A stretch of DNA of 64,000 nucleotides from Eledone cirrhosa (Eukaryota). Shown piece by piece: positions 7,387-62,620 of this stretch. The DNA is taken from assembly GCA_964016885.1 (NCBI GenBank), contig OZ024751.1, forward strand, positions 38,068,001-38,132,000, written 5' to 3'. The notes under the pieces are model-generated. The model was not told where the DNA came from. It did not search any database and worked only from the letters and a program-made list of their open reading frames with translations. The translations under genes were made by a program, and so were the position numbers. Within the stretch, counting starts at the first letter, position 1, and every line of letters begins with the position of its first letter.

Positions 7387-7667
<281 letters not shown>

Positions 7668-22768: not shown

Positions 22769-23624
<856 letters not shown>

Positions 23625-25806
23625 AAATTGGAATAAATGCTCTGAAATAGCGATATATATGTGAATATAGACATAGAATATTCGAAAATATTCTGTATGT
23701 TTATAATAAACATTTTGAAGACCTAATCGCTATAGAATAGAATACGTCACGTATTACAATTAGATTCTCGATAAAAGCAAGGGAAGTAAGTCTACGCGTT
23801 TCATTCTCGTTAGAAATCGTCAGGACTACATATCCAGTGCTTTTATCGAGAATGACACAGCTAGAGACTTATAGAATACTTAGCTGTGTACAGGAACTGG
23901 TTTGAAAGAGCGGTTGCCGGTCCGGCAGAAATTAGAAATTGGAATAAATGCTCTGAAATAGCGATATATATGTGAATATAGACATAGAATATTCGAAAAT
24001 ATTCTGTATGTTTATAATAAACATTTTGAAGACCTAATCGCTATAGAATAGAATACGTCACGTATTACAATTAGATTCTCGATAAAAGCAAGGGAAGTAA
24101 GTCTACGCGTTTCATTCTCGTTAGAAATCGTCAGGACTACATATCCAGTGCTTTTATCGAGAATGACACAGCTAGAGACTTATAGAATACTTAGCTGTGT
24201 ACAGGAACTGGTTTGAAAGAGCGGTTGCCGGTCCGGCAGAAATTAGAAATTGGAATAAATGCTCTGAAATAGCGATATATATGTGAATATAGACATAGAA
24301 TATTCGAAAATATTCTGTATGTTTATAATAAACATTTTGAAGACCTAATCGCTATAGAATAGAATACGTCACGTATTACAATTAGATTCTCGATAAAAGC
24401 AAGGGAAGTAAGTCTACGCGTTTCATTCTCGTTAGAAATCGTCAGGACTACATATCCAGTGCTTTTATCGAGAATGACACAGCTAGAGACTTATAGAATA
24501 CTTAGCTGTGTACAGGAACTGGTTTGAAAGAGCGGTTGCCGGTCCGGCAGAAATTAGAAATTGGAATAAATGCTCTGAAATAGCGATATATATGTGAATA
24601 TAGACATAGAATATTCGAAAATATTCTGTATGTTTATAATAAACATTTTGAAGACCTAATCGCTATAGAATAGAATACGTCACGTATTACAATTAGATTC
24701 TCGATAAAAGCAAGGGAAGTAAGTCTACGCGTTTCATTCTCGTTAGAAATCGTCAGGACTACATATCCAGTGCTTTTATCGAGAATGACACAGCTAGAGA
24801 CTTATAGAATACTTAGCTGTGTACAGGAACTGGTTTGAAAGAGCGGTTGCCGGTCCGGCAGAAATTAGAAATTGGAATAAATGCTCTGAAATAGCGATAT
24901 ATATGTGAATATAGACATAGAATATTCGAAAATATTCTGTATGTTTATAATAAACATTTTGAAGACCTAATCGCTATAGAATAGAATACGTCACGTATTA
25001 CAATTAGATTCTCGATAAAAGCAAGGGAAGTAAGTCTACGCGTTTCATTCTCGTTAGAAATCGTCAGGACTACATATCCAGTGCTTTTATCGAGAATGAC
25101 ACAGCTAGAGACTTATAGAATACTTAGCTGTGTACAGGAACTGGTTTGAAAGAGCGGTTGCCGGTCCGGCAGAAATTAGAAATTGGAATAAATGCTCTGA
25201 AATAGCGATATATATGTGAATATAGACATAGAATATTCGAAAATATTCTGTATGTTTATAATAAACATTTTGAAGACCTAATCGCTATAGAATAGAATAC
25301 GTCACGTATTACAATTAGATTCTCGATAAAAGCAAGGGAAGTAAGTCTACGCGTTTCATTCTCGTTAGAAATCGTCAGGACTACATATCCAGTGCTTTTA
25401 TCGAGAATGACACAGCTAGAGACTTATAGAATACTTAGCTGTGTACAGGAACTGGTTTGAAAGAGCGGTTGCCGGTCCGGCAGAAATTAGAAATTGGAAT
25501 AAATGCTCTGAAATAGCGATATATATGTGAATATAGACATAGAATATTCGAAAATATTCTGTATGTTTATAATAAACATTTTGAAGACCTAATCGCTATA
25601 GAATAGAATACGTCACGTATTACAATTAGATTCTCGATAAAAGCAAGGGAAGTAAGTCTACGCGTTTCATTCTCGTTAGAAATCGTCAGGACTACATATC
25701 CAGTGCTTTTATCGAGAATGACACAGCTAGAGACTTATAGAATACTTAGCTGTGTACAGGAACTGGTTTGAAAGAGCGGTTGCCGGTCCGGCAGAAATTA
25801 GAAATT
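23625..25806 (-). repeat. 311-bp hammerhead satellite/retrozyme array, left arm, 7 head-to-tail monomers
   Basis: 'ggaataaatgc' recurs at 23630, 23941, 24252, 24563, 24874, 25185, 25496; minus-strand hammerheads at 23786-23829 and every +311. Confidence 0.96.
23786..23829 (-). ncRNA. Minimal type I hammerhead ribozyme (first of 7 minus-strand copies)
   Basis: gtagtc CTGACGA t ttct aacg agaa t GAA ACGCGT A gacttac. Confidence 0.94.
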
Positions 25807-25827
25807 AGAAATTAGAAATTAGAAATT

Positions 25828-27499
25828 GCTTTTATCGAGAATCTAATTGTAATACGTGACGTATTCTATTCTATAGCGATTAGGTCTTCAAAATGTTTAT
25901 TATAAACATACAGAATATTTTCGAATATTCTATGTCTATATTCACATATATATCGCTATTTCAGAGCATTTATTCCAATTTCTAATTTCTGCCGGACCGG
26001 CAACCGCTCTTTCAAACCAGTTCCTGTACACAGCTAAGTATTCTATAAGTCTCTAGCTGTGTCATTCTCGATAAAAGCACTGGATATGTAGTCCTGACGA
26101 TTTCTAACGAGAATGAAACGCGTAGACTTACTTCCCTTGCTTTTATCGAGAATCTAATTGTAATACGTGACGTATTCTATTCTATAGCGATTAGGTCTTC
26201 AAAATGTTTATTATAAACATACAGAATATTTTCGAATATTCTATGTCTATATTCACATATATATCGCTATTTCAGAGCATTTATTCCAATTTCTAATTTC
26301 TGCCGGACCGGCAACCGCTCTTTCAAACCAGTTCCTGTACACAGCTAAGTATTCTATAAGTCTCTAGCTGTGTCATTCTCGATAAAAGCACTGGATATGT
26401 AGTCCTGACGATTTCTAACGAGAATGAAACGCGTAGACTTACTTCCCTTGCTTTTATCGAGAATCTAATTGTAATACGTGACGTATTCTATTCTATAGCG
26501 ATTAGGTCTTCAAAATGTTTATTATAAACATACAGAATATTTTCGAATATTCTATGTCTATATTCACATATATATCGCTATTTCAGAGCATTTATTCCAA
26601 TTTCTAATTTCTGCCGGACCGGCAACCGCTCTTTCAAACCAGTTCCTGTACACAGCTAAGTATTCTATAAGTCTCTAGCTGTGTCATTCTCGATAAAAGC
26701 ACTGGATATGTAGTCCTGACGATTTCTAACGAGAATGAAACGCGTAGACTTACTTCCCTTGCTTTTATCGAGAATCTAATTGTAATACGTGACGTATTCT
26801 ATTCTATAGCGATTAGGTCTTCAAAATGTTTATTATAAACATACAGAATATTTTCGAATATTCTATGTCTATATTCACATATATATCGCTATTTCAGAGC
26901 ATTTATTCCAATTTCTAATTTCTGCCGGACCGGCAACCGCTCTTTCAAACCAGTTCCTGTACACAGCTAAGTATTCTATAAGTCTCTAGCTGTGTCATTC
27001 TCGATAAAAGCACTGGATATGTAGTCCTGACGATTTCTAACGAGAATGAAACGCGTAGACTTACTTCCCTTGCTTTTATCGAGAATCTAATTGTAATACG
27101 TGACGTATTCTATTCTATAGCGATTAGGTCTTCAAAATGTTTATTATAAACATACAGAATATTTTCGAATATTCTATGTCTATATTCACATATATATCGC
27201 TATTTCAGAGCATTTATTCCAATTTCTAATTTCTGCCGGACCGGCAACCGCTCTTTCAAACCAGTTCCTGTACACAGCTAAGTATTCTATAAGTCTCTAG
27301 CTGTGTCATTCTCGATAAAAGCACTGGATATGTAGTCCTGACGATTTCTAACGAGAATGAAACGCGTAGACTTACTTCCCTTGCTTTTATCGAGAATCTA
27401 ATTGTAATACGTGACGTATTCTATTCTATAGCGATTAGGTCTTCAAAATGTTTATTATAAACATACAGAATATTTTCGAATATTCTATGTCTATATTCA
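25828..27499 (+). repeat. 311-bp hammerhead satellite/retrozyme array, right (inverted) arm, about 5.4 monomers
   Basis: Reverse complement of the left arm; 'gcttttatcgagaatctaattg' at 25828, 26139, 26450, 26761, 27072, 27383; ends in (TA)n. Confidence 0.96.
26088..26131 (+). ncRNA. Minimal type I hammerhead ribozyme (first of 5 plus-strand copies: 26088, 26399, 26710, 27021, 27332)
   Basis: CTGACGA 26094-26100, stem II TTCT/AGAA, GAAACGCGTA 26115-26124, stem I agtc/gact; predicted cut after 26124. Confidence 0.94.
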
Positions 27500-27514
27500 T
27501 AAATATAAATATAT

Positions 27515-27579
<65 letters not shown>

Positions 27580-27596
27580 AATATATATATAAATAT

Positions 27597-28312
27597 AGTA
27601 TTAGTTATACTATTTATGGTTATGTAAACACAAAACCTTAAGCAGTTGTAAGTATTTTACACACACCCTAAATAGTGGTAGGCAGTAATGTATTACTACC
27701 TTATTACCAGTAAGTTAAGTAGCTCAATGTAAAAACATCAGATGATTTACAGAGCAGTTATATGAAATATAAGAATCAAAAAACTGTTCAAAACATTATT
27801 GTGCTTACAGCTGTTTCCTCCAAACCGAGGTTTGGATTCTTCGGAGCAATTTATTAATGCATGGACAGTTATATGACCTCCTTTTCAGCCGAGAGACTGA
27901 AAAGGAGGTCATATACCTACCTAAGTGCCTCTACCACACATATCTCTCTGCCACACTATATAAACAAGACGCACATGCGTGCCACACATATAACATTTGC
28001 ACTATATAACCACTTATCTTCATGTTGTACTTTAACCTATATCTTTGATTTTTGATTGTACCTATTAATATAAATGTAATCTCGAAGTGTGTACTGCCAC
28101 TCTAAATTCTGTAATGAATGTTGACCCACAATGTTTGAATATGTATCAATGTTTGAATATGTATTGGTATGTCTCTCGGCTGAAAAGGAGGTCATATAAC
28201 TGTCCATGCATTAATAAATTGCTCCGAAGAATCCAAACCTCGGTTTGGAGGAAACAGCTGTAAGCACAATAAAGTTTTGAACAGTTCTTTGATTCTTATA
28301 TTTCATATTTCA
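27597..28312. mobile_element. TA-embedded hammerhead element, family F, with 138-bp inverted arms
   Basis: Arms 27760-27897 and 28171-28308; inner hairpin 27870-27916; hammerheads at 27802-27848 (-) and 28220-28266 (+). Confidence 0.88.
28220..28266 (+). ncRNA. Type I hammerhead ribozyme, CCGAAGA core variant
   Basis: tgct CCGAAGA a tccaaac ctcg gtttgga g GAA ACAGCTGT A agca; identical copy on the minus strand at 27802-27848. Confidence 0.85.
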
Positions 28313-34630: not shown

Positions 34631-34709
34631 AATATATATATATTTACTGAAAAAGCATGTATATATAAGTATCTAGGAGGGCATATATATATATAAATAT
34701 ACACACACG

Positions 34710-34742
<33 letters not shown>

Positions 34743-34783
34743 GCCCTCCTAGATACTTATATATACATGCTTTTTCAGTAAAT
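34550..34783. repeat. 42-bp unit present twice direct and once inverted within (TA)n
   Basis: 'tttactgaaaaagcatgtatatataagtat(g/c)taggagggcat' at 34550 and 34643; reverse complement at 34741-34783. Confidence 0.9.
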
Positions 34784-34799
34784 ATACATATATATATAC

Positions 34800-34865
<66 letters not shown>

Positions 34866-37394: not shown

Positions 37395-37702
37395 ATCAAC
37401 AACATCACCAGCACAAACATGAATCTTTTAGTTGATTTGTTGTTAATTTCCATTATTATTATTTTTTTATTTTTATTTTTTTATTTTTTATTGAAAATGT
37501 TCTGATGGCATTTTCCAGTAGGTTCTTATTATTTTCTTTTTTCATTCACAAATGTTCGTCTCCATACACATGATGTTAAATAGCTTTTGACACTGAATGT
37601 TTCCAGAGAGCTCCCAGGAAACTATTGACGCAGCAATTTGAAGCAAATAATGACACTTAACTGTACACATTGTGCACTGAAAATGCTTATTATACATAAA
37701 AA

Positions 37703-37744
<42 letters not shown>

Positions 37745-37812
37745 TTTTTTATGTATAATACATATATACATATATATGCATGTATATATGTGTGTGTGTA
37801 TGTGTATGTGTG

Positions 37813-38900: not shown

Positions 38901-39921
38901 ACAAATTGCCTAAATTTGTCAACATTTTTGGATACTCAAGTTGCATCCTCACGCACCCCAGCAACACGACATTCTATAAAGTTCATCGTGTGGATAATAG
39001 AGTCTAAACCCCTCAACATCTAACAATGTACTTTATCTAGAAGACACTTTCTAAAACAAGAGGATGAACCTTAAGTATTTAGCAAGACTATTTAAGATAT
39101 CGTCATTATTGCTATTGTCAAATGTGAGTTTATTAATGGCTGTCTGACCACCGTAATCAGAATCTCTTCATTATAATTACCATCGGCTATATAATAATTA
39201 ATATCATCATTAACACAATTTTCTTCCTAATTAATATGACATATATGATATATATACAACAGTACAAGCATCTAAGATTCTTAATTCCTTGTACCGATCA
39301 CTTCATTATTATTATCAACATCATCAACATTATCATCACCATTGTGCTCAGCACCATATTCATTATAACCTTTATTATTATAATCAGCGGTAATAATTTT
39401 ATTATTCTAATATCCACCCATCATTATAATCGGTATAATGATATTTGCAATCATCATTATCATTAACTTTCTCCCCACCCTTTCCTCCTCAACGTTGAAA
39501 TATTTCTGGTTATAATCAGTCTTAATATTTTAATCATCATCACCATCAACGTTATTGTCTTTATCATTAACATACTTATAATCAGCGTTAACATTTTTAT
39601 TATCATTATCAACATCATCATTATTACTATTGTCATTGTAGCAGCAGTAGTTAATGACACCAGAATTGCTAATGAGAGAAACTGCGGAGAAAATGTAAAT
39701 AGCAGTGCTGTATAGTGTATATTGTGTAGTAAACTCCATACTAACTATGAGGTTTAATGTTTACGTCTTCACATTCACTTTAAACATTTGGAAATCCACG
39801 TTGTAGAATCATATCACTCACAAATGTACTCGAAACAATAATAAACAGAGAAGTGATGGCGCTCCTTTTTATCTCAACTTTGCTTCTGTCTTTAATATAT
39901 ACTGCATACTACAAAATCAAC

Positions 39922-40754
39922 AGATAATGTATAATCGTTAATAGTACATTCCTAAATACAATGATTAGAACAACACTAAGTTTTTATTAAAGGTAGTAAT
40001 AGTTGGAAGTTATTTTTGTTAACATTGAATAGGATTTTGAATCGAGAGAATTCTGAAGATGCGTGGTCTTTACATCAACGTAATAAAACCTTTAGTTATT
40101 AAACAGTATCCACTGACGATTATGCAAACACAATAGCATCCAACTGAATCCATTACAATTTTTGGTTGAGGAATTCTAAAACAACTGATGTTTATAATGA
40201 TTTTTACTCTGTACCTATCAATGAAAGAAATCTCAGAAATATGTTGATATTTATACAATCGAATATATATATATGTATATTTATATATATATATGTATAT
40301 ATATAACGAAGGAATTGTGGTAAGGAACCAGGTGGACCATAACGCACCAAAGTACTCAATACTTAGGGTAGTAGAGTGAGTAATATATAAATATACATAT
40401 ATATATATATATTCGATTGTATAAATATCAACATATTTCTGAGATTTCTTTCATTGATAGGTACAGAGTAAAAATCATTATAAGCATCAGTAGTTTTAGA
40501 ATTCCTTAACCAAAAATTGTAATGGATTCAGTTGGATGCTATTGTGTTTGCATAATCGTCAGTGGATACTGTTTAATAACTAAAGGTGCTATTACGTTGA
40601 TGTAAAGACCACGCATCTTCAGAATTCTCTCGATTCAAAATCCTATTCAATGTAAAAAAAAAATAACTTCCAACTATTACTGCCTTTAATAAAAACTTAG
40701 TGTTGTTCTAATCATTGTATTTAGGAATGTACTATTAACGATTATACATTATCT
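39922..40754. repeat. About 365-bp inverted duplication of flanking DNA around a family A 3' fragment
   Basis: Arms about 39922-40288 and 40385-40754 are reverse complements with few mismatches. Confidence 0.93.
40304..40385 (-). mobile_element. Family A element, 3' tail only
   Basis: 'taacgaaggaattgtggtaaggaaccaggtggaccataacgcaccaaagtactcaatacttagggtagtagagtgagtaat' matches 14155-14235. Confidence 0.92.
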
Positions 40755-40765
40755 CCTTCGTTATA

Positions 40766-41557
40766 TCTATACATATATATATATGTATATATATAAAATT
40801 AAGTATGTGTGTGTGTCTGTGTGTCTGTTTATTACCTATAGGGGCTTACATCTTACGACCGATTTTCATGAAACTTTAGAGGCACATAGATTAATCATCG
40901 GGAGTGTTTTCTATATATCAGCGTATCGTTTATTATTTATTCCGAGGTCATTCTGCAGATAAAAATCGATAGGGGGGGTGGGGTCACCTTTTTTTAGGTA
41001 TCGAAAAATAAGATTTTTGGCTCTAGCTCCCCTATTTTTCAACCGATTTCGTTCGAGGCTCCACCTCACACATAAATCAATTTATTTTGTTCAACGTTTA
41101 TACTACGATAGAACCTATCATTGCATATCTTATTCTTTAATACGATTTCTTCTAAATTCTCAGCCTTTGCAGCAAATCATCTTAACTTTTCATTATTTGC
41201 TGCAAATGATGTGTACGATTCTATAATTCCTTCCAATTATCCAGTTGATGGTCAAAGGCAAAACGATGGCCACTGACGTCGTCTGAGCTTTTAGTTGTGT
41301 ATTTGAGAATTCATCGGTTTCCAATCAAGTAGCGTGAGGAAATTTGGCTTAGTGGTAGAGGTCATTACCTCCCTCCCCAGCATGCCACTTCGTCAGTCAC
41401 CCACATTTCTCAGTGATAGAGGTCATCACCACCCTCCCCCGCATCGCCTGTGTGTGGTCATAGATGAGTCATCGAGAAGCAGTCGCTAAGATCAACACGT
41501 TTTCATCAAAGCAGATATTATTTTACCTACCCAGGCAACGCTGGGTACTGCTGCTAG
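40766..41557 (+). mobile_element. Non-autonomous Helitron
   Basis: 5' TC after A, microsatellite-rich 5' region followed by 'ccgattttcatgaaactt', subterminal hairpin tacccag-gcaacg-ctgggta (41528-41547), 3' CTAG before T; the 5' boundary is less certain. Confidence 0.82.
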
Positions 41558-41583
<26 letters not shown>

Positions 41584-41588
<5 letters not shown>

Positions 41589-42724
41589 ACATGGGGAGAA
41601 GAATACTGCTGGTTGCACATGGATAACATGTAATAAAATAATATAAGTCCCTCATCAGTGATTTGCCGACGATCATAGATATTTCATTGCATTAAAAATC
41701 ATATACCTCACGTCGGTGCAATAATAACTAAATTAAGTTATTAGGACAATTAAAACGCATAAAGCGAGTGAGACGAGATAACAACAAAGAGGATAGCTAA
41801 CCGTAGAAGGAAGGGAACAAGCTTCATAGTTATTCTGTTAGCATAAGCTAGGTGAATATATGAGCGCTTAGAAAATAGACCTTTCAGCAGCGAATTCAAA
41901 TGTGAGTGAGAAAGAAAATGATTTCGTCGCGAACGGGGTGAAGTGAGAAGAGGAGAAACAGTGAGTGAGTGAGTGGAAGTGTGAGGAAGAGTTAACGGAC
42001 ATGACAGAGGGGGCGAAAGAAAGTAGGAGAAACAGAGGGAGCAATAAGAGAGAGAGAGAGAGAGAGAAAAAAACAGAAGCGCAGTATAGGTAAATATACG
42101 TGAAAAAATGGGGAGAAGAATACTGCTGGTTGCACATGGATAACATGTAATAAAATAATATAAGTCCCTCATCAGTGATTTGCCGACGATCATAGATATT
42201 TCATTGCATTAAAAATCATATACCTCACGTCGGTGCAATAATAACTAAATTAAGTTATTAGGACAATTAAAACGCGTAAAGCGAGTGAGACGAGATAACA
42301 ACAAAGAGGATAGCTAACCGTAGAAGGAAGGGAACAAGCTTCATAGTTATTCTGTTAGCATAAGCTAGGTGAATATATGAGCGCTTAGAAAATAGACCTT
42401 TCAGCAGCGAATTCAAATGTGAGTGAGAAAGAAAATGATTTCGTCGCGAACGGGGTGAAGTGAGAAGAGGAGAAACAGTGAGTGAGTGAGTGGAAGTGTG
42501 AGGAAGAGTTAACGGACATGACAGAGGGGGCGAAAGAAAGTAGGAGAAACAGAGGGAGCAGTAAGAGAGAGAGAGAGAGAGAAAAAAACAGAAGCGCAGT
42601 ATAGGTAAATATACGTGAAAAAATGGGGAGAAGAATACTGCTGGTTGCACATGGATAACATGTAATAAAATAATATAAGTCCCTCATCAGTGATTTGCCG
42701 ACGATCATAGATATTTCATTGCAT

Positions 42725-42726
<2 letters not shown>
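41584..42726. repeat. About 516-bp tandem repeat (2.2 units, A-B-A-B-A) embedded in (TA)n
   Basis: 'atggggagaagaatac' at 41591, 42108, 42623; near-identical units; TA tracts at both ends. Confidence 0.95.
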
Positions 42727-42750
<24 letters not shown>

Positions 42751-54776: not shown

Positions 54777-54940
54777 ATATATATATATATATATAAAACG
54801 TAGATGCATATCGATAATTTTGTTCTTTGAAATGATTGTAAAAGAAAGGATTAATTAAGTACTTCATTTTGTCTTATTTCATTATTTAACATTATACAGG
54901 CCCAAATATATATACATATATATATAGTATATATATATAT

Positions 54941-56003
54941 ATAAAGAATTAGTATATCTACCAACATATTTATACAGAAGTATACTTATGCTAGCAAGAT
55001 ATAGGTTTTGTCTTAGTAACTTTGTGGTTCAATACAAAAATGTAGAACAATTATATGAAATACGTAAAATAAGAAAATTATAATAATTAACTTACTTACT
55101 TAAGTTTCGCTCCAACTAATTAGTTTCTGAAAGGGGATATACATAGTGTTCAAAGCTATGGAGAATTCCTTTCTTCATCAGGGAGTCAATTCTCTGCTAA
55201 GATCCCAGGCGATAGGCGGACACAGAGATCTCAAACAAAAATAATCCAGTGAATGGAAAAGAAGCAAGCGCGGACTAAATTTCAAGACACTGAAAATTTC
55301 ACTACCTTCCCGGTCAGTGGCAAATTCAAAAGAATCAATCACGTGACATCGAGGTTAATCAGTGAGGAGTGGGGTGTTAAAAAGACAGTAGCCAAAATAC
55401 TACTATGAATCATAGCAGTAATCATAGCCAAAAACTTAAGTAAGTAAGTTAATTATTATAATTTTCTTATTTTACGTCTTTCATATAATTGTTCTACATT
55501 TTTGTATTGAACCACAAAGTTACTAAGACAAAATCTATATCTTGCTAGCATAAGTATACTTATGTATAAATATGTTGGTAGATATAGTAATTCTTTATAA
55601 TTATCTCCAAATTATTTGTTGAGAAAAAATTCGCCTGAATTACTGCTATGATTCATAGTAGTATTTTGGCTACTGTCTTTTTAACACCCACTCCTCACTG
55701 ATTAACCTCGATGTCACGTGATTGATTCTTTTGAATTTGCCACTGACCGGGAAGGTATTGAAATTTTCAGTGTCTTGAAATTTAGTCCGCGCTTGCTTCT
55801 TTTCCATTCACTGGATTATTTTTGTTTGAGATCCCTGTGTCCGCCTATCGCCTTGGATCTTAGCAGAGAATTGACTACCAGATGAAGAAAGGAATTCTCC
55901 ATAGCTTTGAAGACTATGTATATCCCCTTTCAGAAACTAATTAGTTGGAGTGAAACTTAAGTAAGTTAATTATTATAATTTTCTTATTTTACGTCTTTCA
56001 TAT
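54941..56003. mobile_element. TA-embedded hammerhead element, family I: inverted copy plus partial tandem (unit about 521 bp)
   Basis: A(54941-55107) B(55108-55422) | A'(55432-55599) spacer B'(55639-55952) partial A'(55953-56003). Confidence 0.92.
55110..55185 (-). ncRNA. Type I hammerhead ribozyme
   Basis: ctcc CTGATGA a gaaagg ... cctttc a GAA ACTAATTAGT T ggag; the plus-strand copy at 55875-55950 has a mutated core (CAGATGA). Confidence 0.88.
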
Positions 56004-56848
56004 ATATATATATATATATACACTCACACGTGATATTGTAGATACAAACGCATGCCAAAAAACAGACACACGTATATTCAGCCCTGTCTGTAGAGTGTGT
56101 ATAGAATCTTTAAGTACTAATAATTAAGGAAAGACTTGTAAATAAACGGGAGATAGAGGAGGAAAATCATAGCAAACTATTGAAGAATAAAATACAATGA
56201 CCTAACTTCTAACCCATCACCCCTGAAGATGAAACCCTTAAACCTTCAGAGCCCCAGACAGCTAATTAGTGTCTAATTCCATTGCAAAGTTTAATTGACT
56301 TCGCTTCTATATTACAGCATTGATTACATACGGAAATAATATACGAGCATGCGCCATGTTTTCAAAAATGCAATTATACATTTTAAAATTAGTGAAAGGA
56401 CATATATATTACCATGAATTATTTTGAGAGCTGAATTTATACCGAGACGAACCTCGAAATATCCTGAAAGTTCTTTTAATCTATATTAATTATATATGCA
56501 ACTATATTTGTCTTTTAATAAATTGCTAGTTTATCTCGATTCTTATAAATTCATTTGAAATTTGGTCTCTAATTACAGATGAAATGAACAACGTGTATTT
56601 CATTGAATCTCTAAATTAGATTGGCGTCGCAAGTGGAAATATGCCAAAACTTTTTAGACATTGAGTGAGACTGATTTAGCCATTACCGAAAACAAAAGCT
56701 GCTTTATATAATGTTACGTATCATAATTATTTTAGAGCATGTGTGTGTCTATCTCTCTATCTCCATGAATAAATAAATATATATATATTCATTATCAGTT
56801 TTTCACTTGAGTTTTTCCATTGTCTTCGTCCTTTGTGACCGCGCAACT

Positions 56849-56889
<41 letters not shown>

Positions 56890-56903
56890 TATACATATAT
56901 ATA

Positions 56904-56939
56904 TACACTACGTAGTAGAGCACTCAGTCCATGGGACGA

Positions 56940-56999
<60 letters not shown>

Positions 57000-57035
57000 T
57001 CGTCCCATGGACTGAGTGCTCTACTACGTAGTGTA
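56904..57035. mobile_element. 38-bp inverted pair of family D-like 3' tails bracketing (TA)n
   Basis: 'actcgtcccatggactgagtgctctac..tacg' (56998-57029) matches 1622-1655; reverse complement at 56904-56941. Confidence 0.9.
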
Positions 57036-57071
<36 letters not shown>

Positions 57072-57611
57072 AATATATATATAGAGAAAGAGAGAGAAAG
57101 TGAGAGAGAAGCGTGTGTGTCTCTGTGTTGTAAATCGAAATTCTGAACTGAAAATAGTTTCGAAGGATTTACATTATATGCAATATTTTCTGGTTGGATC
57201 ATGGATGACTCGATGTTATTTAACAACAAAAATATCCAGCACCAATTACATGTATAAATATAATCAGATAGGAACACCATATAACCCGTAGTAATAGCTG
57301 TGTTGGTTGTACCACACAGAAACCATGTCTCAGATTTATCCAGAAATTATTGGTATTACATACAGATTCACAATCGCCATGTTCAGTTTGTATATGGTGT
57401 GTGTGTGTTGAGTGTGTGTATATGGTGTGTGCGTTGGATGTGTTGTGGGGAGGAGCAGTCATACAGATGACATCAGATTCAAAACTAGATATTGTCTCGG
57501 AAATGAAAATGTTCACGTGATCTGCCAAGGAAATTATTCCTGAATCTACACTTAAAAATAACATCTATATATACTCCTAAAACATATATACTCATATTCC
57601 CTCTTTCTCTT

Positions 57612-62410: not shown

Positions 62411-62617
62411 ACGTTATTCCGGGTTGAATCGGAGGTAACCACAGTAAGTAAGGTACTCAATACATTGCAGAGTATAAAAGTTTTAATATAGATCAGATTC
62501 TACAGGACTAGAACTGTTTCATTCTTTAGAAATCATCAGGAATCTCATATAGAGATTCCTGATGATTTCTAAAGAATGAAACAGTTCTAGTCCTGTAGAA
62601 TCTCATCTATATTAAAA

Positions 62618-62620
<3 letters not shown>
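62411..62620 (-). mobile_element. Family B fold-back hammerhead element
   Basis: Palindrome 62478-62620 with complete hammerheads on both strands (62495-62545 minus, 62552-62604 plus); tail 62411-62477. Confidence 0.92.
62552..62604 (+). ncRNA. Type I hammerhead ribozyme
   Basis: gagattc CTGATGA t ttct aa agaa t GAA ACAG ttctagtc CTGT A gaatctc; GUA triplet. Confidence 0.9.

Follow-up and report, generated by a model that had tools for sequence, protein, structure and literature searches.

Within the 64,000-nucleotide stretch of Eledone cirrhosa DNA analysed here (contig OZ024751.1; hereafter the window, in whose coordinates positions are given), mirror-image copies of 367 bases of host DNA are confirmed around a 79-base fragment of a Penelope-like element (PLE). 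We give about even chances to the reading, drawn from the sequence, that one stalled integration event produced this mirror copy around a lone element tail. Specifically, the inverted arms run from 39922 to 40288 and from about 40383 to 40754. A global alignment of 39922-40288 with 40385-40754 showed 356 identical bases out of 367 aligned, with 3 gap bases and 11 mismatched bases between the arms, and the fold could be placed in the TA tract only to within 2 TA units. A preliminary description of this DNA had reported an inverted flank duplication of about 365 bp around a tail of the repeat family called family A, and the alignment, together with the placement of the tail at 40306-40384, bears this out. 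The features of this locus (the index locus) are collected in Table 1.

Table 1. Features of the index locus, in window coordinates.
Feature	Position	Strand	Evidence or remark
Left arm, single-copy host DNA	39922..40262	+	Continuous with upstream flank
Interrupted (TA)n target tract	40263..40305	+	Position in sequence and fine alignment
Solo 79-nt tail of a Hydra-like Penelope element; loop of the palindrome	40306..40384	-	Element sense on minus strand
Inverted copy of 39922-40288 (TA tract and host flank)	40383..40754	-	Alignment; 3-nt overlap with tail end
Inverted copy of left junction 40283-40313	40754..40784	-	30/31 identical; 1-nt overlap with arm end
23-nt direct repeat of 40283-40305	40773..40795	+	Alignment
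Right host flank resumes	40796..40830	+	Sequence read

The left arm is likely to be the original copy of the duplicated host DNA, and the TA tract beside it would have served both as cDNA primer and, at about 40288, as the landing site of the fold-back. The tail, which is similar to five further family A copies in the window, has at either boundary a UAU site that is internal to the element. The two inverted pieces were each copied from the top strand, their order is permuted, and the overlaps are those of 3 nt and 1 nt. The second of them contains 8 nt of the tail terminus and the TA tract, with its single interruption in register, and such a register-true inverted copy of the left junction suggests a second round of self-copying. 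Neither this junction copy nor the direct repeat had been recorded in the preliminary description. As for the direct repeat, it may be a target-site duplication or a third small fold-back. Long target-site duplications were found in 0/32 cases in family A when exact, and in 4/32 by loose matching compared to 1.5 expected; because they are atypical of the family, the repeat may be a third small fold-back, and we make no confident call of a target-site duplication.

The genome measures 3.0 Gb in 1796 contigs and is AT-rich, with GC mostly near 0.30 and many (TA)n tracts. A search of it with 301 nt of the arm (39950-40250), in which very common words are left out, returned 2 matches, namely the arm itself and its mirror, and comparison of the arm with 290 sequences (1.85 Mb, window included) led to the same two places only. 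In run X4, the summed contig depth was about 8-17 over the covered parts of the arms, compared to thousands in the adjoining repeats. Given the two genome matches and the single-copy depth, a TIR element, a MITE or a dispersed repeat was rejected; the flank is otherwise single-copy and the arms are not a dispersed TIR repeat, the outcome that the preliminary description required. Contigs of run X4 also matched 39400-40085 on the left and 40420-40587 in the right arm, with 0 differences each. These contigs, carrying arm-specific bases, and the 11 differences between the arms argue against an assembly fold-back artefact, which is unlikely, with the caveat that X4 is possibly the assembled sample. 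A contig of run X1, from a relative, covers 39553-39749; there are differences to either side of 39922, and at one diagnostic site the base is that of the left arm. This relative has a diverged orthologue of the left flank. Among the contigs of the four runs (nine listed), none joined across the site, and neither an empty nor an intermediate allele was observed, a negative of no weight with 40137-40404 and 40673-40806 being without cover; runs X2 and X3 gave matches to repeats only.

The copies of family A in the window consist of TA, tail, short palindrome and TA. By following the arm outward, we reached copies of less than 3 kb whose ends are inverted and whose tail is one-sided, such as those at loci L113 and L114, where the inverted ends measure 744 and 995 nt. 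Features of PLEs (EN+) are present, specifically inverted pLTRs with a one-sided tail, partial tandems, 5' truncation and a single ORF with RT and GIY-YIG endonuclease, frameshifted in the copies seen. In Pfam, family A gave GIY-YIG at only E=0.069 and no RT hit, while its atlas top hits were RT/PF26215 clusters at 0.96; the RT fragment matched no solved structure. The translations, read by eye, contain RWR (not RWK), DKT, a CxCx5C linker, CxxC and CxH. The exact tail-start pattern of the index subfamily has 15,550 genome matches. The index tail matches that of L113 at 92.5% over 80 nt, and in L102 and L302 tails of the index subfamily extend to the ORF start; the index tail can thus be assigned, on sequence similarity, to this Penelope-like element.

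The Hydra clade of PLEs, in the available text of PMC8557442, resembles family A in its size below 3 kb, its RW-basic and DKT motifs and CxCx5C linker, its C-terminal GIY-YIG with CxxC and CxH, its (TA)n targets, and its inverted pLTRs, one-sided tail and partial tandems. Accordingly, the motifs, the size below 3 kb and the (TA)n target were judged to be Hydra-clade features present in family A. On the other hand, the tail measures 79 nt in family A compared to 30-40 nt in the Hydra clade and, unlike what the same text describes, the family A copies tested have no hammerhead and most copies are palindromes of about 200 nt. Inverted copies of host flank are not mentioned for the Hydra clade in that text. 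Specifically, an Rfam scan of 3 loci, with E up to 1, showed no canonical hammerhead ribozyme, and in 6 loci no hammerhead core was placed inside the element, the motif hits apparently lying in adjoining repeats. The arm palindrome was also considered as a hammerhead stem and rejected, with 0 pattern matches and none by Rfam. Given the weak Pfam support, the lack of a hammerhead and the divergence of about 8% among copies, we file family A as a Hydra-like, (TA)n-targeting Penelope-like element and not as a proven member of the clade.

Two further repeats of the window deserve description. A second TA-inserting family, made of a tail plus palindrome, occurs at 62480-62620 and 7551-7667, and also at L121, L148, L162 and L171; in its arms we read by eye what we take to be a hammerhead-like core. 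At 23537-27617, a 311-bp tandem unit forms two head-to-head blocks (7 and 5.4 copies, 99% alike). This inverted array, with arms of about 1.8 kb, lies between long TA tracts and is possibly a PLE-type or retrozyme-type tandem repeat.

In tandem copies of family A, the tail is internal, with sequence running on about 100 nt further to the ORF start, and a UAU (RNA sense) stands at either end of it; extension of the tail towards the ORF start was seen in L063/L064/L119, L102, L115, L145, L302 and L038. It follows that the apparent terminus is an internal RT start and not the RNA 3' end. Two internal UAU sites, both upstream of the ORF, flank the tail, the first start being about 100 nt from the ORF start, and the index cDNA halts exactly at the second UAU site, 79 nt on. 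These findings modify two earlier statements. The 12-mer at 40754-40765, taken for the element's 3' terminus in inverted orientation, is indeed present (6 window matches at up to one mismatch, 0.54 expected), but the terminus in question is the internal RT start upstream of the ORF. Likewise, a stop after about 80 nt of cDNA agrees with the 79-nt tail, and the stopping point has to be redefined as the element's second internal start site.

Each UAU could pair with a TA primer. In vitro, the tail of Poseidon is the sequence between two RT start sites (PMC11167929), and the two UAU tail ends of family A fit this two-start model. In the available text, Poseidon PAc resembles family A in that two internal RT starts close to the beginning of the ORF delimit its tail, cleavage and extension take place on both strands, and the targets are AT-rich. 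The PAc sites, as described there, are adjacent, inside the ORF, in an AC-rich stem-loop and without target homology, whereas those of family A lie 79 nt apart, upstream of the ATG, each at a UAU that would allow pairing with a TA primer.

Across the genome, the exact tail-end pattern continues into the arm in 19,800 matches and goes straight into TA in 216, so that about 1% of tail ends belong to solo tails, in which the cDNA ends precisely at the second internal start. These 216 exact matches (G000) include the 79-nt solo tails within TA tracts at L003-L052 and L133-L172, and nearly all of the 92 tail-to-TA places that we inspected, from among the 100 matches listed, are plain solo tails.

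The recurrence of flank fold-backs was scored at family A insertions and at plain TA tracts with flanks complex enough to be informative (144 of 324 insertions and 868 of 1849 tracts). The final count of anchored inverted flanks recovered the index locus as positive control and lost the 16-nt case L037. An anchored inverted flank was present at 1 of the 37 informative solo tails, this being the index locus (88 examined), and at 4 of the 107 informative arm-bearing insertions (236 examined). Taken together, flank fold-backs occurred at 5/144 family A insertions, index included, and at 22/868 plain TA tracts (Fisher p=0.57), with 10/5000 in the mismatched-pair control; a stricter count of unique arms gave 10 among 1392 tracts compared to 2 of 20,000. 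As to the individual hits, L285 resembles an insertion into an older palindrome and the flanks of L122 and L256 resemble repeats, these being among the 4 non-index insertions, while among the 22 plain-TA hits a single tandem array (L152) accounts for 3, and at least 2 resemble repeats of other families. The plain-TA fold-back copies are mostly 14-60 nt long, and the index is the longest clear host-like case in a 1.2-Mb scan. In conclusion, TA-tract fold-back is real and common in this genome, and the suggestion that the elements specifically create host palindromes is unsupported by any enrichment.

Short flank copies lie in or beside the family A insertions L010, L037, L049 and L300 (20 nt of left flank in L300), and L122 and L256 are double-tailed palindromes with mirrored flanks. 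The index arrangement, by contrast, was found in 0 of 70 short-stub loci (from 244 matches; 40 picked by eye). The count of similar structures called for earlier thus shows, in the loci sampled, that flank fold-backs recur and the index arrangement does not. In 9 of the 70 stub loci, stubs of 8-11 nt are joined to opposite (arm) cDNA; as such joins are common, the right-hand 8-mer of the index locus need not be a junction copy. Instead of a strand switch back to the element end, as formerly proposed, this piece is better read as a re-copying of the junction or as a separate short cDNA stub. Other candidate analogues were discarded: L026/L125, L028/L126 and L006 are adjoining dispersed repeats, L197 is a low-complexity match, and L162 is internal to another family.

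Inverted structures of other kinds were also observed. TA-centred palindromes without a family A tail, with arms of 15-99 nt, occur in the window at 37688-37760, 56856-57083 and 34683-34820; the one at 37705 resembles a mirrored host flank, and the one at 56940 another element's end. In L218:1300-1700, a tandem unit opens with the final 8 nt of the tail and includes the TA junction together with a TA-centred flank fold-back, representing a second case of a re-copied tail junction. Inverted duplications without a family A tail at the apex were found in L096:848-1281, L112:1-368, L030:1826-2865 and L150:2855-3200 and in no other examined locus; they comprise 73-228 non-simple bases at 89-99% identity and end at, or are centred on, TA tracts. 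A complex inverted duplication at 54940-56004 of the window, with TA tracts at its start and end, includes inverted pairs of 371 nt and 168 nt (96-98% identity) and re-used segments, which suggests repeated template switching. At 41532-42736, a 517-bp tandem duplication (about 2.3 copies at 98%) has its breakpoints near TA tracts.

With regard to timing, the arms of the index locus differ at 11/367 positions (3.0%), and the arm pairs of ordinary insertions of the same subfamily at 32/1350 (2.4%; 45 insertions). The index tail departs from the majority of 111 same-subfamily tails at 2/79 positions, the subfamily mean being 2.0%. These ages are compatible with one event but may also fit two close events, the comparison having low power.

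In the single-event model, the TA tract would be cut by the GIY-YIG endonuclease, and cDNA synthesis would start at the first UAU site from the left 3' end, whose last bases are ATA. After 79 nt, at the second UAU site, synthesis would halt with a new 3' end that again terminates in ATA. Failing to join the right end, which would give a solo tail of the kind that makes up about 1% of tail ends, this end would pair with the TA tract of its own strand, some 95 nt upstream and laid bare by 5' resection. From there a polymerase, most likely one of host repair, would lengthen it by about 367 nt, with the strand itself as template. Synthesis-dependent end joining with snap-back reportedly involves the same intrastrand annealing, fill-in and inverted templated copies. 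Inserts made by Pol theta are usually far shorter than 367 nt. In the last steps of the model, the end would detach, re-anneal 8 nt inside the tail, copy the new junction again and join the right chromosome end via TA pairing. The earlier view that the tail is retroelement cDNA primed at (TA)n, and that the strand folded back through self-complementary TA, is supported.

Several observations favour this single event. The tail stops exactly at its boundary and, with 19,800 tail ends continuing into the arm versus 216 into TA, a lone tail would seldom end up in the loop of a random later event beside an intact insertion. Both inserted segments copy the top strand with the short overlaps already described, and the divergences of the arms, of the ordinary arm pairs and of the index tail agree. 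In addition, smaller analogues exist at L300, L037, L049 and L010, besides the double-tailed L122 and L256, and there is precedent in LINE-1 breaks and in yeast fold-back fill-in by Pol delta. Against it stand the equal frequency of flank fold-backs at insertions and at plain TA (p=0.57), the isolation of the index among the 37 informative solo tails and the 70 stub loci, the frequency of short stubs joined to opposite cDNA, the fact that long target-site duplications are no habit of the family, and the observation of neither an empty nor an intermediate allele in the read sets, none of which bridged the insertion.

A rather unlikely alternative is that two events took place, an ordinary tail-arm-arm insertion or a solo tail coming first, and a break with host fold-back repair later. 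The arm hairpin or the TA tract would have broken, and the end would have been trimmed to ATA at the tail boundary, the element acting as a fragile site with no enzyme involved. TA-centred host fold-backs without family A sequence do exist well above the mismatched controls, both in the general count and with unique arms, their rate at plain TA equals that at insertions, and the ATA microhomology would be present at the tail boundary regardless of timing. However, this course of events requires either the total loss of both arms or a prior solo tail, itself a 1% class, and the duplication is as old as the insertions of the subfamily.

We consider it improbable that one event involved two primed ends, of which the left made the tail and folded, and the right, having first folded back over a short length, made an 8-nt stub starting at the first UAU, with a 1-nt overlap joining the two ends. 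Such stubs are documented by the 244 matches of the stub-enriching pattern, many of which are whole-tail variants, by head-to-head stubs (L205, L229, L232, L240, L244, L245, L264, L266, L267) and by the double-tailed insertions L122, L124 and L256, and the terminus of one subfamily would give a 2-nt overlap; yet an extra step is needed to make the TA interruption on the stub side match the register of the left junction (30/31). It is highly improbable that the arms are a TIR-type dispersed repeat, a pre-existing inversion or an assembly fold-back artefact. Palindromic repeats do abound in the window and the empty site was not observed, but the arm is single-copy, with single-copy depth and arm-specific bases in X4, the relative has a diverged orthologue, and the arms differ by 11 mismatches.

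The single stalled integration has parallels in other systems. At LINE-1 breaks, resected ends anneal to themselves at 2-bp TA/AT homologies, and this priming produces inverted duplications of the flank (bioRxiv 10.1101/2024.12.14.628481). The available text of that study (its Fig. 4 in particular) shares with the index locus the cDNA at a break, the inverted host duplication and the TA/AT priming of 2-3 nt, as well as a short direct repeat across the site. The inverted single-copy flank with microhomology at the fold, which serves as criterion for the LINE-1 type, is present at the index. The two inverted duplications described there for LINE-1 arose in somatic cells, at the reciprocal end and with a small hairpin, whereas at the index locus the end that folded carried cDNA, which forms a 95-nt loop, a second copy of the junction is present and the element is a PLE. 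The divergence of about 3% indicates that the index scar is inherited, unlike the somatic LINE-1 cases.

In yeast, fold-back priming and fill-in at double-strand breaks are carried out by Pol delta (PMC10622511). As far as the available account goes, this pathway resembles the index in its intrastrand annealing, fill-in and inverted templated copies, but ends in a hairpin-capped dicentric chromosome, while the index locus was resolved locally. Palindromes at PLE inverted junctions have been interpreted as self-priming (PMC3846280). We found no report of inverted host-flank copies at PLE insertions in the open-licence PMC and bioRxiv literature, and the available portions of PMC9977147, PMC3846280, PMC13282606 and bioRxiv 10.64898/2026.07.22.740005 do not describe them. 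This scar type is known already at human LINE-1, and the locus presented here is a variant of a known break-repair scar; what sets it apart is the element class, the folded cDNA-bearing end with its cDNA loop, the second junction copy and the inheritance. All in all, the preliminary description was broadly right but overstated.

It is possible, though in our view doubtful, that TA-targeting Penelope elements constitute a genome-wide palindrome factory, and that most TA-centred host palindromes are footprints of the PLE endonuclease. If this were true, both ends of a cut TA tract would prime on one RNA at the two UAU sites, and such twin priming would give the classic tail-plus-inverted-arm product, the solo tails and the stubs. 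Cuts failing to capture cDNA would fold back and mirror the host flank, and the index would be a case caught with the cDNA still in the loop. TA-centred host palindromes would number roughly 10^4, a figure scaled up from the non-random 1.85-Mb sample.

The index locus is one repair scar without sign of function, and its value is that of a snapshot of a Penelope integration intermediate. The stop of its cDNA at the second start site supports the two-start tail model in a clade far from the one studied in vitro. Moreover, family A, with its tens of thousands of short copies, solo tails and stubs, offers a natural data set on the inverted ends of PLEs. The leads of most interest are the genome-wide TA-centred fold-backs and the two-UAU priming model. 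About 1-2.5% of the TA tracts with readable flanks carry a mirrored flank, and these mirrored flanks suggest that TA-rich animal genomes steadily gain heritable palindromes, be it through PLE cuts or the fragility of TA tracts.
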